A stretch of DNA of 64,000 bases, taken from the NCBI GenBank assembly GCA_963740355.1, contig CAVUDW010000003.1, positions 288,001-352,000 on the forward strand, in the 5' to 3' direction. Numbering within the stretch: position 1 is the first letter of the stretch; each line of letters opens with the position of its first letter. The stretch is from an uncultured Gemmatimonadaceae bacterium (GTDB lineage: Bacteria; Gemmatimonadota; Gemmatimonadetes; Gemmatimonadales; Gemmatimonadaceae). The notes under the pieces were generated by a model. It had not been told where the DNA came from, made no database searches, and saw nothing but the letters and a program-made list of their open reading frames with translations. Of this stretch, positions 6,117 through 17,796 are shown piece after piece. A program made the translations under genes and the position numbers.

Positions 6117-8738
6117 GTGAGCGAGTTCGACGTGCGCACCGCAGTACCAGCCATCCCTGTTGTCGGGATCGGCGCTTCCGCTGGAGGGCTCGACGCCCTC
6201 GAGCGATTCTTCCGCAACGTCCCGGTGCCATCCGGGCTCGCCTTCGTCGTGGTCCAGCATCTGGATCCGACACACAAGGCGCTGCTCGCAGAGCTGCTCC
6301 AGCACGTCACAAGCATGCCAGTGACGCAAGTTCGGAGTCGCACACGCGTGAAGGCGGATTCGGTGTACGTCATCCCGCCGAACAAGGAACTGACGCTCGA
6401 AGGCGGGGCGCTGCACCTGCATGATCCAGTCGCCCAGCGCGGCCATCGGCTACCGATCGATGTCTTTTTCGCATCGCTGGCACTGAACTCAGCCGAACAC
6501 GGAGTGGGTGTGGTGCTGTCGGGCATGGGGCATGACGGCACGGCGGGAATGCGCGCGATCAAGGAGCACGCCGGTGCGGCATTCGTCCAGGAGCCCACGA
6601 CGGCCAAGTTCGCTGCCATGCCGTCGAGTGTGATTGCGGCCGGGCTGGCCGACATGATCGCGCCGCCAGAGGAATTGCCCGCCCTGATCGTGGCGCACCT
6701 CGCCCGCGCTCCCGGCGCCCGAACGACACGGCCAGCGCTGACCGTGGTCGGACGCCTGACAGGCCTCGACCGCATCCTCGTAGTGCTGCGAGAGCGTACC
6801 GGACACGATTTCTCGCTCTACAAGCAGAGCACGATCCACCGCCGCATCGAACGTCGGATGGCGCTCCACCACATCGACGCGCTGGACGCATACGAGCGTT
6901 TCATACAGGCGACGCCGGATGAAGTACACTCGCTCTTCAAGGAACTCCTGATCGGCGTCACGAACTTCTTTCGCGACCCGGATACGTGGAACCAGCTTTC
7001 GCAGGAGATCGTGCCAGCGCTGATCGATGCGCGCCCGGTGGGTACGGCCGTGCGCTGCTGGGTGGTCGGCACGGCGACCGGCGAAGAGGCCTATTCCCTC
7101 GCGATCACTCTTGCCGAAGTGATGGAGAAGCGGACGGCGCACCCGCACGCGGTCAAGATTTTTGCGACTGACCTCGACGGTGCCGCCATCGAGAAGGCGC
7201 GCGCCGGGATCTATCCACCGACGATCGCAGCCGATGTTTCGCCGGAGCGATTGCATCGCTGGTTTTCCGACGCGCCCCCGGGCTATCAGGTTGCCAAGCG
7301 GATCCGGGAGATGGTGATCTTCGCGCAGCACAACGTGATCATGGATCCCCCGTTCACACGCGTCGATCTCGTGTCGTGCCGAAACCTGCTCATCTATCTC
7401 ACCGAACCGTTGCAGCAACAGATACTCCAGCTCTTTCACTACGCATTGAATCCAGGTGGCACGCTCGTTCTTGGCAGTTCCGAAACGATCGGCGCGGCCA
7501 CACACCTCTTTGCGCCGATCGACGGACCATCGCGGATCTATCGCCGGCTCGATGTCGTCGCGCCAGCGGTGCCGCACCTTGTGGCGTTCACACCACCGGT
7601 GATCGCGTCCAAGGCATCGGCCGGCGTCTCCACACGGCAGCACTATTCACTTCAGGGTGATGTCGAGCGACTGCTGCTCGCGCAATTTGCGCCCGTCGCT
7701 GTCCTGACGAATCGCAAGGGTGACATCATCTTCGTGAGCGGTGATACCTCACCGTATCTCCGATCGGTCTCGGGGAGCAGCGCTTGGAACGTCTTCGCGA
7801 TGTCGAGCGACGGGATGCGTGATGCAATCAGCGAGGGATTCCGGGAGGCGCTGCTCGCGGCCAGCCCGGTCACACGCGTGCATCGCGATTCGGCTGAGGC
7901 ACACGCTGTCAACATTCGCGTCCAGGCCGTGCGGGAACCGCTGTCGTTGAAGGGCACCCTCCTGGTCGCCTTCACCGACGACTCTGTGTCGCCAGGCCCG
8001 CAGCGCGCCACACGAGTCACGGCGGCAGCGAAGACGCGCATCGCGGACCTCGAAGCGCAGTTGAATGCGGGGCGACTGGAGATCCAGACGCATCGTGAGC
8101 ACACACAAAGCACCAATGAGGAAGCCAGTGCGGCGAACGAGGAATTGCAGTCGACGAACGAGGAACTGCAATCGACCAATGAGGAGCTGACGACGTCGAA
8201 GGAAGAAATGCAGTCGATGAACGAGGAACTGCAGACACTCAACCGTGAGCTCGAGACGCGCGTCGACGACCTGTCACGACTCACGAACGACATGAAGAAC
8301 CTCATTGACAGCACCGAAATCGCGATCGTCTTTCTCGACCTCCACCTGCACATCCGGCTCTTCACCGCTGGCTCGACAAAGATGTTCCGGCTCATCCCTG
8401 GTGACATTGGCCGCCCGCTCACCGACCTGGCCTCATTGGTGATCTACGCGGACCTGGCCTCGGATGCGCGCGAGGTCCTGCGCACCCTGGTCGCGACGCA
8501 GCGTGAATCGGAGACCCTGGACAGGCGCTGGTGTCTCGTGCGCATCATGCCGTACCGCACACTGGACAACCGGATCGATGGCGTGACGATCACCTTCTCG
8601 GATATCACCGCGTCAAAGGCGCTGGAAGAGGCACTGCGTACGACGCAGGCCGGCCTGGAGCAACGGATCGTCGTGCAGGATCAGCAGCTCCAGGATACGA
8701 GCGGCACCGCTGGGCGCCCGGTGGAGCGCGCGACGTGA
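6117..8738 (+). CDS. CheB methylesterase-CheR methyltransferase fusion with coiled coil and PAS domain
   Basis: CheB GIGASAGG/QHL/LSGMGHDG; CheR IGVTNFFRD, TGEEAYS, IFATD, SCRNLLIY; NEELQS heptads; C-terminal PAS-like region (RIMPYRT...IDGVTITF). Confidence 0.93.
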   Translation: MSEFDVRTAVPAIPVVGIGASAGGLDALERFFRNVPVPSGLAFVVVQHLDPTHKALLAELLQHVTSMPVTQVRSRTRVKADSVYVIPPNKELTLEGGALHLHDPVAQRGHRLPIDVFFASLALNSAEHGVGVVLSGMGHDGTAGMRAIKEHAGAAFVQEPTTAKFAAMPSSVIAAGLADMIAPPEELPALIVAHLARAPGARTTRPALTVVGRLTGLDRILVVLRERTGHDFSLYKQSTIHRRIERRMALHHIDALDAYERFIQATPDEVHSLFKELLIGVTNFFRDPDTWNQLSQEIVPALIDARPVGTAVRCWVVGTATGEEAYSLAITLAEVMEKRTAHPHAVKIFATDLDGAAIEKARAGIYPPTIAADVSPERLHRWFSDAPPGYQVAKRIREMVIFAQHNVIMDPPFTRVDLVSCRNLLIYLTEPLQQQILQLFHYALNPGGTLVLGSSETIGAATHLFAPIDGPSRIYRRLDVVAPAVPHLVAFTPPVIASKASAGVSTRQHYSLQGDVERLLLAQFAPVAVLTNRKGDIIFVSGDTSPYLRSVSGSSAWNVFAMSSDGMRDAISEGFREALLAASPVTRVHRDSAEAHAVNIRVQAVREPLSLKGTLLVAFTDDSVSPGPQRATRVTAAAKTRIADLEAQLNAGRLEIQTHREHTQSTNEEASAANEELQSTNEELQSTNEELTTSKEEMQSMNEELQTLNRELETRVDDLSRLTNDMKNLIDSTEIAIVFLDLHLHIRLFTAGSTKMFRLIPGDIGRPLTDLASLVIYADLASDAREVLRTLVATQRESETLDRRWCLVRIMPYRTLDNRIDGVTITFSDITASKALEEALRTTQAGLEQRIVVQDQQLQDTSGTAGRPVERAT
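8115..8240 (+). repeat. Six degenerate 21-bp tandem repeats encoding NEELQST heptads
   Basis: Units include aacgaggaattgcagtcgacg, aacgaggaactgcaatcgacc and aacgaggaactgcagacactc, in frame within the CheB/CheR gene. Confidence 0.8.
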
Positions 8739-10834
8739 AGCCGCGTCGCCCGACGGGCAGCGGTGACGCGCAACTTCGACAGCTGGCGGAGCGGCAACTG
8801 GCGCCGGTGGCGGGCACAGGCGAAACGGAAGGGAGAGAGATGGAGCGCCTGGTGCACGAACTCCAGGTGCACCAAATCGAGCTCGAGCTGCAGAACGAGG
8901 AGCTCCGATCAGCGCGCGATGAAGCCGATGCGCTGCTAACGCAATTCACCGAATTGTATGACTTCGCACCGGTCGGATACCTGTCCGTGAACGAAGCTGG
9001 CGTGGTGACGCAGGCGAACCGCGCCATCGGCCAACTGCTCCAGATCGAGCGATCGCCCTTGATTGGTCGGCGATTCGGGCTCCTGCTGCAGGAAGCGGAT
9101 CGCGTTGCCTTCAGTGACTTTCTCCGCGGCATCTTCACCGGCACGCCACAGAAGCCGATGGAGCTTTCGCTCGAGGGCGACACGGGCACCTCACACTGGT
9201 GTCGGCTCGAGGCGACCCTTCCCCCTGGCGCCGCCGAGTGCCACATAACGGCCACGGACCTGACGGAGCGGCGCGCCGCTGAAACCGGTTTGCTCCAGGC
9301 AGAACAGTTCGCACGGGATGCCCTCGACGCCCTTTCGGCCAACATCGCGATCATCGATGGCAGCGGCACGATCATTCGCGTCAACCAGGGATGGACTGAC
9401 TTTGCGATCGCCAACGGCGCCACGCCGCAGAATGTCGGCATCGGCCGCAACTATTTCGACGTGTCGATGGCGAAAACAGATGTCTCGCGGCTCTCGGCGG
9501 AGGGCTTGGTGGCTGGCATCAACGCGGTCTTGTCCGATGACCTGCCGGAATATCAGTTCGAGTACCCCTGTCACTCACCGGATGAAGAGCGGTGGTTCTC
9601 GGTGCGCGCGACACGATTCACCGACCATGGTGCGCCATGCGCGATCGTGGCGCATCAGGACATCACGGCCCGCATCCAGCTGCAGACGCAGCTGCTGCAC
9701 GCGCAGAAGATGGAGATCGTGGGCCAACTCGCCGGCGGCATCGCCCATGACTTCAACAACCTGCTGACGGTGATCAACGGTGTCGCCGAGCTCGCGCTTA
9801 CGGCAACCGAGCCTGGCACGCCCCTCGAACGCGACCTGGTCGACATCGCCAGCGCCGGGCAGCGCGCAGCGCGGTTAACGCGGCAGCTTCTCGCCTTCAG
9901 CCGGAAGCAGGTGATGTCCTTCGAAACCGTTGCGGTCGACGAGGTGGTGTTGAACTTGCGCAGCCTGTTGCAGCGCCTGGTCGGCGACGACATCACACTC
10001 GAGATCGAGTGCGACGCGGAGACTGGAAGCGCACTCGTGGACGCGAACCAGCTGGAGCAGGTGGTGATGAACCTCGTCATCAACGCACACGACGCCATGC
10101 CGGATGGTGGCATCCTCAGCATTCGCACCGGCAAGCTCGTCCTCGATGATTCGAGGGAGTCGGCACGGTGGCAGCTGCCTCCGGGACCCTATCTATCGAT
10201 CAGGATCAGCGACACCGGAACTGGAATGACCGCTGCGGTTCGCGAGCGAATTTTCGAGCCGTTCTTCACCACCAAGGAGATCGGGCGAGGGACGGGCCTC
10301 GGCCTGTCGACCGTGCAGGGAATCGTGGCGCAGAGTCAGGGGAGCATTTCGGTCGAAAGCACCCTAGGCGTCGGCACTGATTTCTGCATCCTCCTTCCGC
10401 GGGTGGAGCCGATGGCACCGACGAAGACGATGCCACCAGTCGGCCTCGAGTCTGGCGGCCGCGGAACGATCCTGATCGTCGAGGACGAGTCCGCCGTGCG
10501 ACGCATTGCCGAGCGCGTGCTTCTCCGCGATGGCTACGCTGTCCTGTCCGCAGCCAGCGGCGAAAGCGCACTCGAGATGCTGGCGCTGCACAGCGGCGCA
10601 GTGGACCTCATGCTCACGGACATGCGGATGCCAGGGATGAGCGGCGCGGAGCTGGCGGCGGAAGCGCGCGCACGCTTTCCAGCATTGCGGGTGGTCTTTG
10701 CGTCCGGCAATAGCGCCAACTCTCTCGATACGGAATTCAGCTCTCCGGCGCCGGAGTTCTTCCTCGGAAAGCCATACCTCTCCGCGCAGCTGCTGCACGT
10801 CGTCCGTGCCGCCCTGCTCTCCCCGCCCCGATAG
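8735..10834 (+). CDS. PAS-PAS hybrid histidine kinase/response regulator
   Basis: GTG start overlaps the cheB/cheR TGA (GTGA); [17 protein letters not shown] helix, [33 protein letters not shown], receiver domain. Confidence 0.92.
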
Positions 10835-10861
10835 ACCGTCCCGGCGCGGCGTCGAATCGCG

Positions 10862-10921
10862 CTGACATGTCAGTGCACATGGGTCAGCGTACCCATGTGC
10901 GCCGATCATGCAACATATATT
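10862..10921 (+). promoter_or_regulatory. Two inverted repeats plus a TATATT -10 box; probable (leaderless) promoter with operator
   Basis: ctgacatgtcag perfect palindrome (10862-10873); gcacatgggt-N6-acccatgtgc (10875-10900); TATATT at 10916-10921, ending 6 nt before GTG ATG (10928/10931). Confidence 0.5.
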
Positions 10922-10930
10922 CTCGCAGTG

Positions 10931-11377
10931 ATGCACCGCCCGTTCTGGCTCCGCGCCCTGGTTGCTGTCTGGGGACTCTGGTTCACGACTGCTGTCGTCG
11001 AGCCGGCGGGGTTGTTCGCGTGCGTCAAACACAACGGTCTGGCAGCGGTCGGGCAGCAGGTCGCCAGCAGCGCACCGTCGGCGAGTGGTAGTGGCCACGA
11101 GCACCACGGTGTCACTGCCGACCGTCACACCGCGCACAGCACGGACGCCGCGGTGCCTGACGGCGAGTCGGCGCCGGAGAGCCATGACTGCTGCACCTGC
11201 ATCGGGCACTGCTGCGCCACCGTACCAGTCACGGCACCGCGGCCGACCGTCATCGTCGACGCTGAAATTGCCAGCGAGACGTCGCCACAACCACGTGCCC
11301 CGGAGCCGTTCAGCCCGGGGCGCGTCGCCTACGTCTTGCCATATGCCAACGGTCCGCCGGCCATCGCGCTGAGCTGA
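10931..11377 (+). CDS. DUF2946/CruR-like His/Cys-rich leader protein
   Basis: Hydrophobic N-terminus, CVKH, His-rich linker, HDCCTCIGHCC, Pro-rich tail ending LPYANGPPAIALS; lies directly upstream of a TonB-dependent receptor. Confidence 0.7.
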   Translation: MHRPFWLRALVAVWGLWFTTAVVEPAGLFACVKHNGLAAVGQQVASSAPSASGSGHEHHGVTADRHTAHSTDAAVPDGESAPESHDCCTCIGHCCATVPVTAPRPTVIVDAEIASETSPQPRAPEPFSPGRVAYVLPYANGPPAIALS

Positions 11378-11598
11378 TCCGCCGTTGCACCGACGCTGGC
11401 CGCACACAGTGGCTTCGCGTCTGCGCCAGCCCAGCCTGGCGCCTCCCACATCTCGTTCTCTGCAATGCCGCGACACCCGTTGGTGCTTCGGGCTGCGCCG
11501 CGCTTGCCGTGCGTTCAAGTCGCACGTCGGTCGCGCGCCCGTCGAGTACCGTCGGTGCGCCGGTGTTGGATTTTCACGCCTCCAATCGACGCCACACC

Positions 11599-13892
11599 AT
11601 GAAGCATCCTGCAGTTTTCATCGCGCTCATCGCGATCGCATCCTCTCTCCACGGTCAGTCGCGCCCTGCGCAGGCCGAGCCTGATACGCTCGCCAAGCGG
11701 CCCACGACACTGGGCGGCGTGACGGTCACCGCAGACCGCGACCGCCGGCCCTCGATCACCAAGCTCACCATGCCCGTCTCGGCCAGCATCACCGCCACCA
11801 AGGTGCGTGAGACGGTGAACCTCATCGACACCGAGGACGCCGTGAAGTACCTGCCGAGTGTCTTCCTGCGGAAGCGCAACAACGGCGACACGCAGGCCGT
11901 GATGGCGACGCGATCCTGGGGGGTCAGCTCCAGCGCGCGCAGCCTGGTGTTCGCCGATGGTGTGCCGCTGACGGCATTGATCGGCAACAACAACACCATC
12001 GGCGCGCCGAGATGGGGGCTGGTGGCACCAGAAGAGATCGAGCGCATCGACATGATGTACGGCCCATTCTCGGCCGCGTACGCCGGCAACTCGATGGGCG
12101 CGGTGATGGAGATCACCACGCGGGTACCGGAGCGACGTGAAGGATCGATCACCCAGACGGGCGCGCTGCAGTCGTTCGACCTGTACGGGACGAGCCGCAC
12201 CTACGGCACGTCGCAGACCAGTGCACGCCTGAGCGATCGTATCGGCAAGTTCAGCTTCGTGGCCAGCGGGAACTACCTCGACAGCCGCAGCCAGCCGCTC
12301 AGCTTCGTCACGGCGTCGACCTTTCCGACCGGGACGACCGGTGGCTTCCCCGCCACGACCAAGCTGAACACACCGGCGAACATCCTTGGGGCGAGCGGCG
12401 TGTTGCACACCCGCATGGTCAATGGGACGTTCAAGCTGGGATACGACATCACGCCCACGGTGCGCGCGGCGTACACCTTGGGCTCTGGCAGAACGATGCC
12501 GACGCGACCGTCGATCCGTACCTGCAGCGCACCGGGGCACCGACGTTTGCAGGACAGGCTGGCTTCGCCAGTGGCTTCTACGCACTGCTCCAGCGGCACA
12601 CATCGCAGAGTCTCTCGGTCCGCACCAATCGTCGCAAGGACTGGGACGCGGAAATCATCGGCACCACCTATCGGATGGATGTCGATCGTCAGCGGTTCGC
12701 GACATCGGCATCCGCCACAGACACCACCCTTGGCAACAGCGGCCGCGTCGCGTCGCTGACGGGCACGGGCTGGTCATCGCTCGACGTGAAGGGCGCGTGG
12801 CATGCTGGCGGCAGTAGCGTGGCGGCACACACGGTGACGTTCGGGGCGCACGCCGACTATTACCGCTTGCTCAATCCGACCTACAACACGCTGTTCTGGC
12901 GATCGCAGGCGCCGGTGTACACCAGCGTCGCGACGGAAGGTGATGGCAAGACGGCGACGCAGGCTCTCTGGGTGCAGGACAACTGGCGACTTGCACCGAC
13001 GCTGCGTCTCACCGTAGGTGGCCGGTACGAATGGTGGAAGGGATTCGATGGATACAATGTGAATGGCGCGTCGCGTGTGACGCAGCCCACGGTGTCCGCG
13101 AACCGCTTCTCGCCCAAGGCATCGCTGGACTGGAAGCCAAACGTGGACTGGAACTTCACCGGCTCGATCGGGAAGGCGTATCGGTTCGCCACGGCGTCGG
13201 AGCTCTATCAGCTGGTCTCGACCGGCACGACGTTCACGTCGCCGGACCCGAACCTGAAGCCGGACAACGTGTTGGCCATGGAGCTGCGCGCGGCACGCGA
13301 GTTCGCACGCGGACGAGTGCAGTTGTCGCTGTTCAACAACGACGTGCACGATGCCATCATCTCGCAGTTCAAGCCGCTGGTGGCTGGCTCGCCAACCTTC
13401 TACTCGTTCGCCTCGAACGTGGACCACATCCGACTGCGCGGCATCGAGTTCGTAGTGCAGGAGCGCGATCTGCTGGTGCCGGGCCTCGAGCTGCAGGGCA
13501 GCCTGACGGCGCTCGATGCCACGATTCTCGCCACCTCGGGTCGGGCGAGCGCCACGGCGGCCCCTGACGCCGCCATCGGCAAGCAGGTGCCCAACGTGCC
13601 GAAGTTGCGCGGCACGGTGCTCGCGACCTACCGGCCGATCGACCGCCTCGCCCTCTCACTGGGTGGCCGCTACAGCGACAAGCTGTATACCACCCTCGAT
13701 AACGCAGACCTCAATACCAACACGTATCAGGCGTTCAGCGCCTGGTTCGTCGCCGATGCACATGTGAACTACCGCGTGAACAATCGATTGAACGCCTCGG
13801 TCGGCGTCGACAACCTGCTCAATCGCAAGTACTTCCTCTTCCATCCGTTCCCGCAGCGCAGCTTCGTCACGAGCGTGAAGTACGGGTTCTGA
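11599..13892 (+). pseudogene. TonB-dependent receptor, split by a 1-nt deletion near 12484 (pseudogene or sequencing error)
   Basis: Signal peptide MKHPAVFIAL; plug EIERIDMMYGPFSAAYAGNSMGAV; barrel ending GVDNLLNRKY...VKYGF. Junction ttg ggc tc tgg cag aac rejoins as YTLG-x-WQND. Confidence 0.85.
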
Positions 13893-14050: not shown

Positions 14051-15408
14051 GTGCCTCAACAGACCCATGTGAATCGCCGTCAGTTGGTTGCATCGATCGC
14101 GCTGCTCTGCTCGGCTTGCGGGCACTCAGCCACGTTGCCGATCGAGTCAGGTTTCGGCCCGAGCGCCAGTGCTGCCGGAACCGCGCAGCTCGCTCATTCC
14201 AATGACGAAGGTCGCACGGGCAGTCGGATGGGCGTCGGGGCGGGCGCCGATCGCGGCCCAGGGCCTGCACGTGGCTCCGTTCGCAACGGGGCTGACGCAT
14301 CCGCGCTTCGTCTATGCGTTGCCCAACGGCGATGTGTTGGTGGCGGAAACGAACGCGCCGAAGAGGCCCGACGATGGCAAGGGAATCAAGGGATTCTTCT
14401 TTCGCTATTTCCAGCGCAAGGGCGGTGGTGCAGTTCCCAGTCCCGATCGCATCTCGCTCCTACGCGATGCCGACGGCGATGGCGTTGCGGAGACTCGATC
14501 AGTGTTCCTCAGCGACTTGCATTCGCCGTTCGGCATGACCCTGGTCGGGCACACCTTGTATGTCGCGAACACCGATGCGTTGGTCCGGTTTCCATATGTG
14601 GATGGTGCAACCAGCATCACCGATACGGCAGTCACGGTGCTTGTCGCTCCCCGCAGGGACACTCAACCATCATTGGACGAAAACCGTGGTGGCATCGGCT
14701 GACGGAAAGACGCTGTACGTCAGCATCGGCTCGAACAGCAACGCGGGCGAGAATGGGCTGGACAAGGAGGTGGGACGCGCAGAGATCTGGGAAGTGAATC
14801 CTGGCACTGGTGCACACCGTGTGTTCGCCAGCGGATTGCGCAACGCCGCCGGCCTCGCAATCGAACCCCAGACTGGCGCGCTCTGGGCTGCCGTGAATGA
14901 ACGCGATGAAATCGGAAGTGACCTCGTTCCCGATTACATGACCGCGGTTAAGGACGGTGGATTTTATGGCTGGCCGTGGAGCTATTTCGGGAATCGTGTC
15001 GATCCACGGGTGCAGCCTGCCCAGCCGGCGCGCGTCGCCACCGCCCTCGTCCCTGATTACGCGCTCGGTGCCCACACGGCGTCGATTGGCTTGATTGCAG
15101 CGGAGGGGGCGCGCCTGCCTGCGGCATTCTGCCACGGGATGTTCGTGGGACAGCACGGCTCCTGGAATCGCAATCCACGCAGCGGCTACAAGGTGATTTT
15201 CGTGCCTTTTGTGGCTGGACGGCCCCGAGGGGCGCCAGTCGATGTCTTGAGTGGTTTTCTCAACGCCGAGAACGAGGCAATGGGCCGGCCCGTCGGTGTG
15301 GCCATCGACCGCCGTGGCGGCCTGCTGGTGGCAGATGATGTCGGCAACGTGGTCTGGCGCGTGCGCGGGGATTCGGTCCCGAACCCGGAGTGCGTCAGCA
15401 CACGCTGA
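14051..15408 (+). pseudogene. L-sorbosone dehydrogenase / PQQ-dependent sugar dehydrogenase family lipoprotein, two +1 frameshifts (~14165, ~14640)
   Basis: Three ORF pieces join: lipobox [72 protein letters not shown]. Confidence 0.82.
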
Positions 15409-15474: not shown

Positions 15475-16410
15475 TCACCCGCCTGCGGAAGCCATCACCT
15501 GTGCAACCGCGCGCGTGATGGCTTCCACGCGACTGGCGTCATCTCGCGGAAGATCGCGCAGCGATGCCGTGCTGACATCCCAGGCATCGGCCTGCTGAGG
15601 CCTTTCGGTCAGGAGGTGTGCCAATTGTGCGGAGGCACCTCCGTCGACCGTGAAGAACTCCCGATGCCCGCTGTGAATCGCGATCTGGGCGGCGCCAGTC
15701 CACACCCCAAGGTCGAACCACGCGGGCTGTTGAAGGATCCCCTTCAGTGCCAGACCAATCTCGCCTCGCGACGCGTCGCTGCCGAAGGAGGATTCCCGAC
15801 CCATCGAGTCGAGTCGCGAAGCGACAGGCGCGGCACCCGCGACGTCAGACAGCAGTTCCCGGATCTGCGACGTCGCCGCCATGACGGCCACCGAATCACT
15901 CGCGCGCGCTGCGATTTCGAGTTGCGCGAGGCGCACACCGATGCGGAACGCACGCCTCGTGGCGATCTGCGTCGATTCCGAGCCACGAGAGACCGACCAG
16001 CCTGGCACGTCCCAGCCCGCACCGAGTGTGCGCGCGAGCGAACCGGCACCCGTGGCGCCTTCGAGGCGCGGCACGACGGCCAGGCTGACGGTCGCATCCG
16101 GACGACCAGTGCCACGCAAAAACACCACGATCGCAATCGTGGCAGCGACGAGCGCGATCGGCGCGACGTATCGCCAGCGACCTTTTCGTCGTGACACCAG
16201 CACTACCGAATCGCGCGCCTCGTTCGCGCCAGATGCCGCTGCCCCAGTCTCGGCCGCCAGTTCACGATGAATGGCAACCGCGTCGACGAAGATGGCGTGT
16301 GCCTCGCGTGAACTCGCCAGTATCCGCATCGCCGCCGCGCGTTCGTCCGGCGTGGCCGTGCCATCGATGACGCTGGCAAGCAGTTCTGGATCGATCAGCG
16401 GAGCGTTCAT
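15475..16410 (-). CDS. Putative membrane-anchored anti-sigma factor
   Basis: Follows the ECF sigma gene; N-terminal IDPELLASVIDG..DERAAAMRIL resembles a ZAS-like helix without Zn ligands; single TM (YVAPIALVAATIAIVVFL); extracytoplasmic domain. Confidence 0.65.
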   Translation of the reverse strand: MNAPLIDPELLASVIDGTATPDERAAAMRILASSREAHAIFVDAVAIHRELAAETGAAASGANEARDSVVLVSRRKGRWRYVAPIALVAATIAIVVFLRGTGRPDATVSLAVVPRLEGATGAGSLARTLGAGWDVPGWSVSRGSESTQIATRRAFRIGVRLAQLEIAARASDSVAVMAATSQIRELLSDVAGAAPVASRLDSMGRESSFGSDASRGEIGLALKGILQQPAWFDLGVWTGAAQIAIHSGHREFFTVDGGASAQLAHLLTERPQQADAWDVSTASLRDLPRDDASRVEAITRAVAQVMASAGG

Positions 16411-16459
16411 GAAGTCCGTCCGTGACGGAGCCGCAGGAAACAGGCGTGGGGAAGTCGAG

Positions 16460-17230
16460 CTACCATGACGCACCACTGGACAGCAAGTCGCGGACCCGCT
16501 CGATGTCGAAGCCGCGCGACGTCAGCAGCCGCCGCAACTCCTGCTCGATCGAGTCGATGCGACGGTACAAGGGCTTCGGCTCGAGATTGAGGGCCCGGGC
16601 AATGTCAGCGACCGAGATGTTATCCCAGTACCGCATGTGCAGGATGACCTGATCCTCCACCGGCAGCTCCGTCATTGCGCTCAGGAGCTCGGCAAAATCA
16701 CTTTCGTGCCCATCGGGGTTCGAGGCGCTGACATCCACCTCCTGCGGCAGGCCAGTCAGCGCCTCGAGCGGCACCTCGCTGGACGGCTGCCGTACCGGAA
16801 GGCTTCGTGCCATCCGTCCCAGTTCGACATCGCTCTCGGGAAATCCGGCGGAGCGCAGAATCTCGATGGCTTCCCGCAGTGTGTAGTTGTCGCGGTGCAG
16901 CAACTCTTCCAGCCGCATGCCGACCGGCCCCATTCGAGTGGCAGCCATCGACGGCCGCCACCGGCCCCACACACTGTTGCGATAGTCGTGAAATAGGTTG
17001 CTGAGGACGACGGATAGATAGGTGGCGATTGACGAGCGACCCGCGTACTTCCGGAAGATGCCGTAATCGGTATCCACGATGCGGGCGCGCACCCAAGAGC
17101 CGAACTCGTCCGCATCAGACGGCGAGAGTGCATTTTTTATCGCAATGATCCCAATCACCTTGTCGATGGTCGGCAGGTGTTCGAGAAACGCGCGTTCGGG
17201 ATCGGTAATCGGCACGCCAGCGGCGGTCAT
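16460..17230 (-). CDS. ECF-type RNA polymerase sigma-70 factor
   Basis: Region 2 (DADEF...FRKYAGRSSIATYLSVV..NLFHDYR) and region 4 (LPVEDQVILHMRYWDNISVADIARAL); ATG at 17230. Confidence 0.85.
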   Translation of the reverse strand: MTAAGVPITDPERAFLEHLPTIDKVIGIIAIKNALSPSDADEFGSWVRARIVDTDYGIFRKYAGRSSIATYLSVVLSNLFHDYRNSVWGRWRPSMAATRMGPVGMRLEELLHRDNYTLREAIEILRSAGFPESDVELGRMARSLPVRQPSSEVPLEALTGLPQEVDVSASNPDGHESDFAELLSAMTELPVEDQVILHMRYWDNISVADIARALNLEPKPLYRRIDSIEQELRRLLTSRGFDIERVRDLLSSGASW

Positions 17231-17796
17231 CAAACTCAGACGTGTCGGATAGAAGAGCACACCGCGCCGAAACCTTCCCGCAAGCCGCGGTGCGCCACTG
17301 CTCCACAAAAGCTCAGCCCGGTCAGGCCGGTCAGGCCAGAGCCAATGTAGTCGAATTCCCGACGGTGCTGCCACCCGGACGCCCCCTCCCCCACCTGCCG
17401 CCCGCAGGAGTGAATTGGCCGTATGCTGTAACGAACTCACGCGGAATAAGTGCGTATTCTGAACAAGTCACCCCTCATGACCGAGACTACGGTCTCATCT
17501 GCGACAGCGGCACAGGCGCAAGAGTGACGAGGCCTGACCTTTCGAGGCGCGGGCATATGCCCGGCATTTGTCTCTTGGACTGTCGTTCCAATCGGAATTC
17601 CCCACACGAACGCAGGCCCGGTGCGTCTCGCGATCCGTGTCGCCCGCCAGACTGGGGCGTCTTCCTACTGACTGCCGATGGGCACGGATGGGGGTACCCC
17701 CAACGTTTCCCTGTCTCATGTTTAGTCCGACGCTGCGCACTTAGCGCCGACCGGTTCTTCGGTCTCTGGCAGCGCGCCAACCCCTCCCGAGCCGAG

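Follow-up and report, generated by a model that had tools for sequence, protein, structure and literature searches.

Introduction

The closest described systems to the gene considered here are the upstream open reading frames (ORFs) of the CruR and CutF kind. CruR (Bp2923) of Bordetella pertussis is a DUF2946 protein of 145 residues, encoded by the upstream ORF of the cruR-bfrG/crtA-bp2921 operon. According to its description (PMC9426467), it is poorly structured and carries CXXC at residues 90-93 and RAPP at residues 139-142, followed by a 3-residue tail, a 162-bp spacer and the gene of a TonB-dependent receptor (TBDT). The 45 residues intervening between the two motifs are kept to within 1-2 residues and are required for the regulation. 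A region with more C than G (the C>G bubble) holds the Rho utilization (rut) site; copper relieves the ribosome arrest, after which Rho terminates the transcription (PMC9426467). Here, a comparable ORF of 148 codons, located upstream of a TBDT gene, was analysed in a stretch of 64,000 nt (the window) of contig CAVUDW010000003.1 (positions 288,001-352,000) of an uncultured Gemmatimonadaceae bacterium (assembly GCA_963740355.1). The ORF had been proposed in a preliminary description to be a metal-sensing arrest leader equivalent to CruR and CutF, with NGPP in the place of R(A/G)PP.

CutF of Rhodobacter capsulatus (cutFOG) contains CxxxC and EGPPPRL motifs, and both the export of the protein and elongation factor P (EF-P) are needed for its function; the pause melts a stem-loop that masks the Shine-Dalgarno (SD) site of the nearby downstream multicopper oxidase gene (PMC9973294; bioRxiv 10.1101/2025.02.05.636593). 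The rule given for CutF-like proteins comprises a length of less than 150 residues, PP among the 15 C-terminal residues, the presence of a signal peptide, and a neighbour on the same strand within 1000 nt (PMC9973294). Both CruR and CutF are reported to escape detection as proteins in the cell in spite of the translation of their mRNAs. In the case of the RAPP arrest peptides, the Arg was described as irreplaceable, with AAPP and AGPP as arrest-defective controls, and TBDTs and copper genes were enriched downstream of small ORFs with RAPP or RGPP (PMC12992588).

Results

The small ORF in the window

The mechanical ORF listing contained a longer form of 160 residues from position 10895, 12 codons earlier than the ATG at 10931. 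As all six close relatives begin with MHRP(F/A)WLR at the position matching 10931, the latter was taken as the start codon. The determined features of the ORF (window positions) are the following.

10931-11377, forward strand: small ORF of 148 residues plus stop, putative metal-sensing leader peptide (translation, relatives, family profile)
10943-10996, forward strand: codons of the N-terminal hydrophobic helix, residues 5-22, signal or anchor segment (AlphaFold2, conservation)
11021-11032, forward strand: C31-V-K-H34, first candidate metal site, family consensus C-P-M-H (conservation)
11183-11215, forward strand: Cys cluster H85-D-C-C-T-C-I-G-H-C-C95, family core CxCxxxC (conservation)
11216-11335, forward strand: "ruler" spacer, residues 96-135, fixed in length and free in sequence (entropy, gaps, spacing)
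11336-11359, forward strand: L136-P-Y-A-N-G-P-P143, putative arrest motif (family counts, synonymous codons)
11360-11377, forward strand: unconserved tail of 5 residues, AIALS, and the TGA stop codon (family tails)

The protein starts with M-H-R-P-F-W-L-R, which is followed by a hydrophobic stretch. A further His site, H56-E-H-H59, is located between the CxxH and the Cys cluster, and the stretch between the Cys cluster and LPYANGPP is rich in Pro, Ala and Val. The hydrophobic N-terminus, the CxxH, the His cluster, CCTCIGHCC and the Pro-rich spacer reported in the preliminary description were all recovered in this translation. ANGPP was present as well, although not at the very C-terminus where it had been placed, as the five residues AIALS follow it. 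The rule for CutF-like proteins applies to the ORF with its 148 residues, PP located 6-7 residues from the end and a 221-nt spacer to a neighbour on the same strand, with the signal peptide judged from the helix alone.

With an alignment of 132 sequences, AlphaFold2 predicted a single helix (residues 5-22, preceded by basic residues, predicted local distance difference test score (pLDDT) above 90) and coil elsewhere, with the mean pLDDT of 68.7 and the predicted template-modelling score (pTM) of 0.30. The mean pLDDT over residues 1-20 was 91-93. A lipoprotein interpretation of L-F-A-C31 was set aside due to the family consensus L-H-x-C and the E-P-A that separates the hydrophobic core from the Cys. 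The interpretations as a precursor of a ribosomally synthesized and post-translationally modified peptide, as an anti-sigma factor or as a sorting signal were rejected, since neither adjacent maturation genes nor a C-terminal transmembrane segment were found.

Family, distribution and conservation

The exhaustive phmmer search with the 148-residue protein resulted in 315 representative homologues at E<=1e-3, 48 of them at E<=1e-10. When the 90%-clustered collection was searched with a profile, 33 matches were obtained, all unnamed or annotated as "hypothetical protein" of Gemmatimonadaceae or Gemmatimonadetes; none of the 33 had a precomputed Pfam domain. No match to the protein was obtained among plasmids (tblastn). 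From species-representative genomes, 44 loci (L001-L044) were collected in one gapped DNA-pattern scan, which catches only the members with CLGxC...PFANGPP and is silent on motif variants; the distribution described here covers these genomes and the protein searches. Forty-two of the loci belong to Gemmatimonadota, 40 labelled Gemmatimon- and 2 labelled Longimicrobiales of the same phylum, and the remaining two come from bins with the labels Actinomycetota and Kuenenia. The family hidden Markov model (HMM) matched one ORF per locus in 43 of the 44 loci, and a single ORF of the window, 10931-11377 (E=6e-43). In the two contigs of metagenome-assembled genomes with L010 and L044, the codons of the Cys cluster and PFANGPP were out of frame (pattern spans of 160 and 162 nt, respectively), so that the small ORF is frameshifted in both.

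Near the C-terminus, with PP not more than 20 residues from the end, x[G/A]PP was detected in 146 of 149 representatives, and the tail after it was 1-9 residues long and free in sequence, with one case of 19 residues. NGPP was the most frequent four-residue form (104), followed by TAPP (13), NAPP (8), IGPP (5), TGPP (4), LGPP (3) and rarer variants. The residues found at the first position were N, T, I, H, L, S, Q or V; Arg was found in 0 of 146. Eight upstream residues are conserved, and exact LPFANGPP occurred in 70 of the 149, in agreement with the LP[FY]ANGPP that had been expected in homologues. Synonymous codons vary freely at the L, A, G, P and P of the motif, those of Gly being split 14/11/11/6, which indicates that the selection acts on the peptide and not on the RNA.

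In the 132 aligned sequences, C31, P142 and P143 were invariant, and R8, W17, H34, H56, C88, C90, G92, C94 and P137 reached a conservation of 90% or more. The Cys cluster and x[G/A]PP stood 42-47 residues apart (mode 44-45, standard deviation 1.0) in 171 of 178 proteins, the other 7 being excluded from the spacing counts because of a missing motif or a truncated sequence. In the same 171 proteins, the first Cys of the CxxH and the Cys cluster were separated by 28-82 residues (standard deviation 11.7). Over residues 96-130 the entropy was the highest in the protein, 3.16 bits, and yet only 1% of gaps was present; the gap content of residues 35-84 was 31%. Judged by sequence comparison, the features of the small ORF are far beyond chance, as the motif, the Cys cluster and the spacing are kept in 171 of the 178 family proteins.

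Membership in DUF2946 (PF11162), for which an HMM search had been suggested, was not obtained: the window protein scored 15.7 bits (E=0.026) against the cut-off of 23.7, and 21 of the 132 family members matched at E<=0.1 with the best E of 0.0011, all below the cut-off. With CopL_fam (NF033807), the score was 21.9 bits against the cut-off of 40, and 45 of the 132 members matched at E<=0.1. These sub-threshold matches are not random, because every other family was matched by at most 3 members. In the ESM Atlas, the DUF2946 and CzcI clusters were the closest ones with a name and ranked next after two Gemmatimonadota clusters, which is a lead only.

The receptor and other downstream genes

The gene that follows the small ORF in the window is the following.

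11599-13892, forward strand: TBDT gene with a 1-nt deletion near 12481-12483; frame A 11599-12483, frame B from about 12480 to 13892 (Pfam, tblastn)

The receptor starts with the ATG at 11599 and contains Plug (E=8e-11) and TonB-barrel (E=2e-43) domains. The reported order of a 221-nt spacer (11378-11598) and a TonB receptor was hence confirmed; of the receptor itself, the assignment by domains held, and the start had to be moved from 11600 to 11599 and the gene divided by the deletion. When four orthologues were used in tblastn, one frame was matched up to 12483 and another from 12480. The DNA at this site reads GGGCTCTGGCAG where the orthologues encode G-W-W-Q (context AYTLGWWQND), which fits a 1-nt deletion. 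The site (12476-12486) lies outside any homopolymer run.

The beta-propeller gene located after the receptor (weak GSDH, NHL and DUF7133 matches) is also split, into two overlapping frames at 14088-14702 and 14560-15408, and thus two consecutive broken genes stand beside an intact leader ORF. No counterpart of the beta-propeller gene was found in the 44 related loci by BLASTP. The frame splits of both the receptor and the beta-propeller gene may be due to mutation or to assembly error.

A TBDT was the immediate downstream gene in 36 of 41 testable loci, 33 by Pfam and L019, L024 and L042 after the ORF had been chosen anew; loci with enough downstream sequence were counted as testable, and L001 and L036 end too early. 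Beyond the 36 of 41, the cut start of a TBDT was detected downstream in L021 (BLASTP). The five exceptions were L022, where a 315-residue protein without a family follows the small ORF, and the four Longimicrobiales-type loci L014, L015, L023 and L039, where a protein of 355-359 residues without a Pfam or NCBIfam family is followed by an OmpA-family protein. The small protein of these four loci has a different N-terminus.

Seventeen of the TBDTs are orthologous to the window receptor with 55-78% identity. Others are only 25-29% identical (plug domain) or contain CarboxypepD_reg; at least 3 subfamilies are represented overall. The best generic receptor subfamilies for the window TBDT were under their cut-offs. 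The complex prediction for the receptor (residues 22-764) and the small protein (residues 27-148) of L004 gave 0.00 against the mark of 0.32 and is uninformative either way.

Behind the TBDT, fusions of CopC and CopD with 440-455 residues were found in L006, L009, L017 and L025, which suggests a copper uptake route from the outer to the inner membrane. The anticipated TBDT and copper neighbours were accordingly both observed, the latter in 4 loci. The other genes behind the TBDT encode a redoxin (L004, L019, L031, L040), weak BNR-like proteins (eight loci) and CHAD proteins (four loci); in L002 and L003, DM13, an extracytoplasmic function (ECF) sigma factor and an RskA-type anti-sigma factor follow. 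Plasmid 1 of Gemmatirosa kalamazoonensis, a cultured strain of the phylum (L045, 122525-135595), also carries a gene for CopC-CopD with 55% identity to the one in L006, and neither the small ORF nor a TBDT was found beside it.

Nucleotide signals around the small ORF

Three features of the DNA outside the coding regions were considered.

10916-10923, forward strand: -10-like box, TATATT (10916-10921) overlapping TATTCT (10918-10923), 9 and 7 nt before the ATG, respectively (family-wide position of TAnnnT)
11378-11598, forward strand: C-rich intergenic region of 221 nt (C 87, G 64), candidate attenuation site (composition)
11550-11575, forward strand: weak terminator-like hairpin (11550-11565) followed by TTGGATTTTC, with a lone TACCGT at 11547-11552 (parts not conserved)

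In 28 of 43 loci, a TAnnnT hexamer ended 4-12 nt, mostly 6-9 nt, upstream of the start codon, compared with 1.4% expected from the hexamer frequency of the loci themselves. After three start corrections the box was present in 29 of 43 loci, and T was enriched 22-23 nt upstream of it (19/29 and 17/29). By its position, the -10-like box implies an mRNA that would be leaderless or have a leader of 1-3 nt. In the sigma-70 consensus scan of 10600-11800, no promoter-like site was obtained under the strict rule. Elsewhere in the window, long ORFs rarely carry such a box before the start.

The spacers were 120-341 nt long across the loci. In all the 17 orthologous spacers together, one -10-like hexamer was detected, corresponding to 0.0003 per position compared with the background of 0.0015; it is the TACCGT of the window, located 46 nt before the receptor ATG. 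The boxes precede the small ORF and are depleted in the spacers, which argues for the co-transcription of the small ORF and the receptor. Terminator-like hairpins were found in 2 of the 17 spacers and were weak. No Rfam match was obtained within 10500-12000.

The C>G skew from the Cys codons to the stop codon was +0.13 and positive in 36 of 39 loci; over the first 100 nt of the spacer it was +0.14 and positive in 37 of 39. The corresponding values in the receptor body and the upstream region were +0.008 and -0.002, respectively. The segment from 45 nt before to 100 nt after the stop codon of the small ORF, taken from 44 loci, folded more strongly than dinucleotide shuffles with a mean z of -1.0; 24 of the 44 loci were below -1 and 2 above +1. 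In many loci the hairpins include or abut the stop codon, though no sequence is conserved.

At the first Pro of the motif, 20 of 42 loci carry the rare codon CCT, as do 16 of the 29 clusters formed at 70% identity; among the 705 Pro codons of 23 TBDT genes from the neighbourhood, CCT accounts for 4.1%. The window has CCG, not CCT, at this position (11354-11356). For the Gly of the motif, GGT and GGA were over-used, 22 of 42 compared with 27% of the Gly codons in the adjacent receptor genes. In motifs with CCG (e.g. L009, L012, L034, L043), a small CCGTT/AACGG hairpin is located within the P-F-A-N-G codons; it looks incidental, as CCG occurs in just 13 of 42 loci.

The preliminary description had pointed out that the receptor lacks a clear SD sequence. 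This trait carries no weight, because few of the 25 longest ORFs in the window are preceded by SD-like motifs and 22% of the mRNAs in the class Gemmatimonadetes are listed as SD-bearing (PMC10783764, Table 1).

Other genes of the region

Upstream of the small ORF, at 6117-10834, a CheB-CheR-PAS fusion and a PAS-HisKA-HATPase-receiver hybrid kinase are encoded, with no sign of belonging to the unit of leader and receptor. Downstream, on the reverse strand at 15475-17440, an ECF-type sigma factor (weak region-4 match) and an unannotated ORF of 333 residues were found.

Discussion

We lean towards the view that the 148-residue ORF opens a small operon and that its main role is that of a cis-regulatory leader peptide similar to CruR and CutF, not that of a stable protein. 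This view builds on the observed conservation pattern, ruler, synteny, C>G bubble and promoter-like box. In the proposed mechanism, the transcription would start from the promoter abutting the start codon and yield a leaderless mRNA. The N-terminal helix would guide the nascent chain towards the membrane or translocon, and the ribosome would slow down or stop while joining the two prolines of LP(F/Y)ANGPP. At this moment the CxCxxxC, about 45 residues upstream through the length-constrained spacer, would be just out of the exit tunnel and could bind a thiophilic metal, most likely copper. The binding would alter the dwell time of the ribosome on the motif, and the occupancy of the 3' end of the ORF would set the read-through of RNA polymerase across the C-rich spacer into the receptor gene. 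We favour an attenuation that depends on Rho, like that of CruR, since the C>G bubble is present, terminators are lacking and the cargo (TBDT, CopC-CopD) is of the importer type; an excess of the metal would then probably turn the importer off.

Several results weigh against this interpretation. Stalling is proposed from the indirect signs of motif position, ruler and rare codons; the motif lacks the Arg of the RAPP peptides, and EF-P normally resolves a plain GPP. None of the family members reached a Pfam or NCBIfam cut-off, hhalign against an alignment of 27 CopL sequences gave the probability of 5% over 17 columns, and the likeness to DUF2946 and CopL may be convergent. The receptor of the window is frameshifted. 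It is not OprC/NosA according to TIGR01778 (E=8e-4, 18 bits compared with the cut-off of 472) nor a relative of CrtA by sequence, and the nearest PDB chains, PhuR and Cir, match the plug domain alone; the copper link consequently rests on the CopC-CopD genes and the Cys/His/Met sites of the peptide. With respect to the DNA, the spacers of the 17 orthologous loci could not be aligned outside one close clade, and no conserved sequence or structure was found in them. The window spacer (11340-11630) folded no better than shuffles (z=0.02), the structured proximal spacer of the family does not fit a purely unstructured rut site, and TACCGT may provide the window receptor with its own promoter. The conservation of the N-terminal helix exceeds what a disposable signal peptide would require, which hints at a function of the protein itself.

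The last point leads to the main rival, in which the product is a stable exported or membrane-anchored metal-binding protein, i.e. a metallochaperone or a receptor partner, LPFANGPP serves as a contact or processing motif, and the genes are co-expressed without any arrest. The well-conserved helix (R8, W17, E24-P25), the three conserved Cys/His sites, the constant pairing with outer-membrane proteins and the sub-threshold matches to CopL_fam, the NCBI "metal-binding regulatory protein", would all suit such a protein. However, no fold past one helix was predicted from the 132 sequences at the pTM given above, and a spacer free in sequence and fixed in length is odd for a folded domain and expected of a linker that spans the tunnel. 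The constant position of the motif 1-9 residues before the stop, the rare codon enriched at the first Pro and the C-rich spacer of 120-340 nt, atypical of simple co-expression, speak against it as well, and we regard a stable protein as unlikely, though as a serious candidate.

Lower still is the probability assigned to a translational output as in CutF and SecM, where a pause at GPP, induced by the metal, would melt the hairpins adjacent to the stop codon, and the refolding would expose the SD-less receptor start. The excess folding of the stop region and the first 100 nt in 24 of the 44 loci, the location of the hairpins at the stop codon and the shared G-P-P of CutF's EGPPP, where EF-P and a stem-loop are described to take part, are in favour of this mechanism. 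At 120-340 nt from the stall site, on the other hand, the receptor start lies beyond the reach of direct unmasking, an SD that could be shielded is missing, neither a hairpin nor a sequence is kept family-wide, and importer-like genes (TBDT, CopC-CopD) would fit the metal shut-off of CruR better than an induction by metal, which makes the translational output improbable. A chance ORF, or an antisense ORF of 384 residues (10364-11518, reverse strand) as the real gene, could have been considered because long spurious ORFs are common in a window of 65% G+C and the antisense ORF is the longer one. Both are already refuted by the 315 homologues, the match of the family HMM in 43 of 44 loci and the synonymous motif substitutions in the forward frame; the antisense ORF has no Pfam family.

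By comparison with the described proteins, the ORF belongs to an unannotated, phylum-restricted family that resembles CruR and CutF and differs from them in motif, in Cys pattern and apparently also in its leaderless start. A more far-reaching proposal, which we put forward only tentatively, is that these leaderless upstream ORFs form a Gemmatimonadota-specific new class of metal-sensing arrest peptides. The class would be characterized by an Arg-free LPFA-[N/T]-[G/A]-P-P, possibly assisted by CCT, and by a ruler of about 45 residues; it would be independent of DUF2946/CopL or diverged beyond detection, and would gate several TBDT subfamilies, probably for copper acquisition together with CopC-CopD. 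In the literature, no paper linking Gemmatimonadetes with DUF2946, or an arrest peptide with a Gemmatimonad, was found. Neither "Gemmatimon" nor "NGPP" occurs in Table S1 of the CruR paper (2,172 lines; PMC9426467) or in three supplement files of PMC9973294, whose larger lists, including list D, were outside that check.

If the motif arrests ribosomes, it would represent a naturally occurring arrest module of the xGPP/xAPP form that does without Arg and has an upstream context of its own, and would widen the sequence rules of programmed stalling. The recurrence of a 45-residue nascent-chain ruler for metal sensing in a distant phylum, if true, would be due to descent or convergence, and a leaderless start would add an example of a regulatory upstream ORF whose translation proceeds with no 5' untranslated region. 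Several hundred "hypothetical proteins" gain a name and a testable function, and the downstream TBDTs, with CopC-CopD behind some of them, are flagged as candidate metal-uptake systems in Gemmatimonadota, a phylum common in soil and freshwater whose regulation is almost uncharacterized.

Comparison with CruR, CopL, CutF and RAPP peptides

The proposed equivalence to CruR and CutF was supported with regard to the ruler, the C>G bubble and the synteny, and not with regard to the Arg-free motif and DUF2946 membership. Compared with CruR as described, the proteins are similar in size (145 and 148 residues), in the N-terminus of export type, which is putative here, in the Cys motif followed by a length-conserved spacer of about 45 residues to xxPP, and in the short tail past it (3 residues in CruR, 5 in the window). 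Both are predicted to be unstructured, in both the C>G bubble covers the 3' half of the ORF and continues into the spacer, and the genes that follow are those of a TBDT or of copper functions. In contrast to the RAPP and CXXC of CruR, NGPP or TAPP and CxCxxxC with an extra CxxH are found here; C87-C-T-C90 of the window protein does contain a CxxC, whereas the pattern conserved family-wide is C88-x-C90-x-x-x-C94. The described homologues of CruR are mainly from Proteobacteria and the present hosts from Gemmatimonadota. The TBDT that follows does not resemble CrtA, a PepSY_TM gene was not observed, and the -10-like box abuts the start codon.

CopL of Xanthomonas (NF033807) is collinear with the family in the hydrophobic N-terminus, the C/H site, the variable region, the DCC...CxCxC cluster, the gap-free spacer and the C-terminal LP-x-x-x-x-PP with 2 further residues. 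It differs by the Arg in LPHLIRPPIG, by a spacer of 39 residues from the last conserved Cys and by preceding copAB instead of a TBDT. A forced global alignment placed CxC on CRCAC and LPFANGPP on LPHLIRPP, with 0.9%, which is not significant.

With CutF as described, the family shares the G-P-P core and the Cys/His metal sites, which are putative here. The PPP, the CxxxC, the stem-loop shielding the SD and the close multicopper oxidase gene are features of CutF; the present family lacks the SD, has a long spacer without conservation and has a TBDT as its proposed target. For SilD of pMOL30, designated as CutF-like in PMC9973294, no Pfam match was found, and hhalign to the leader family aligned 3 columns.

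The RAPP/RGPP peptides (ApdA, ApdP, SecM-like) are likewise described as small exported proteins with xxPP near the C-terminus, encoded ahead of the regulated gene (PMC12992588, PMC10951233). The absence of Arg from the leader family makes the same short-circuit mechanism impossible in unchanged form. Since nothing is reported to be able to replace the Arg in RAPP, and AGPP and AAPP are described as dead controls (PMC12992588), NGPP is no simple variant of RAPP, as opposed to the replacement of R(A/G)PP by NGPP suggested initially. If stalling does occur, the family would have a diprolyl motif with an upstream context of its own, LPFA, which by analogy would be closer to EGPPP of CutF than to RAPP.

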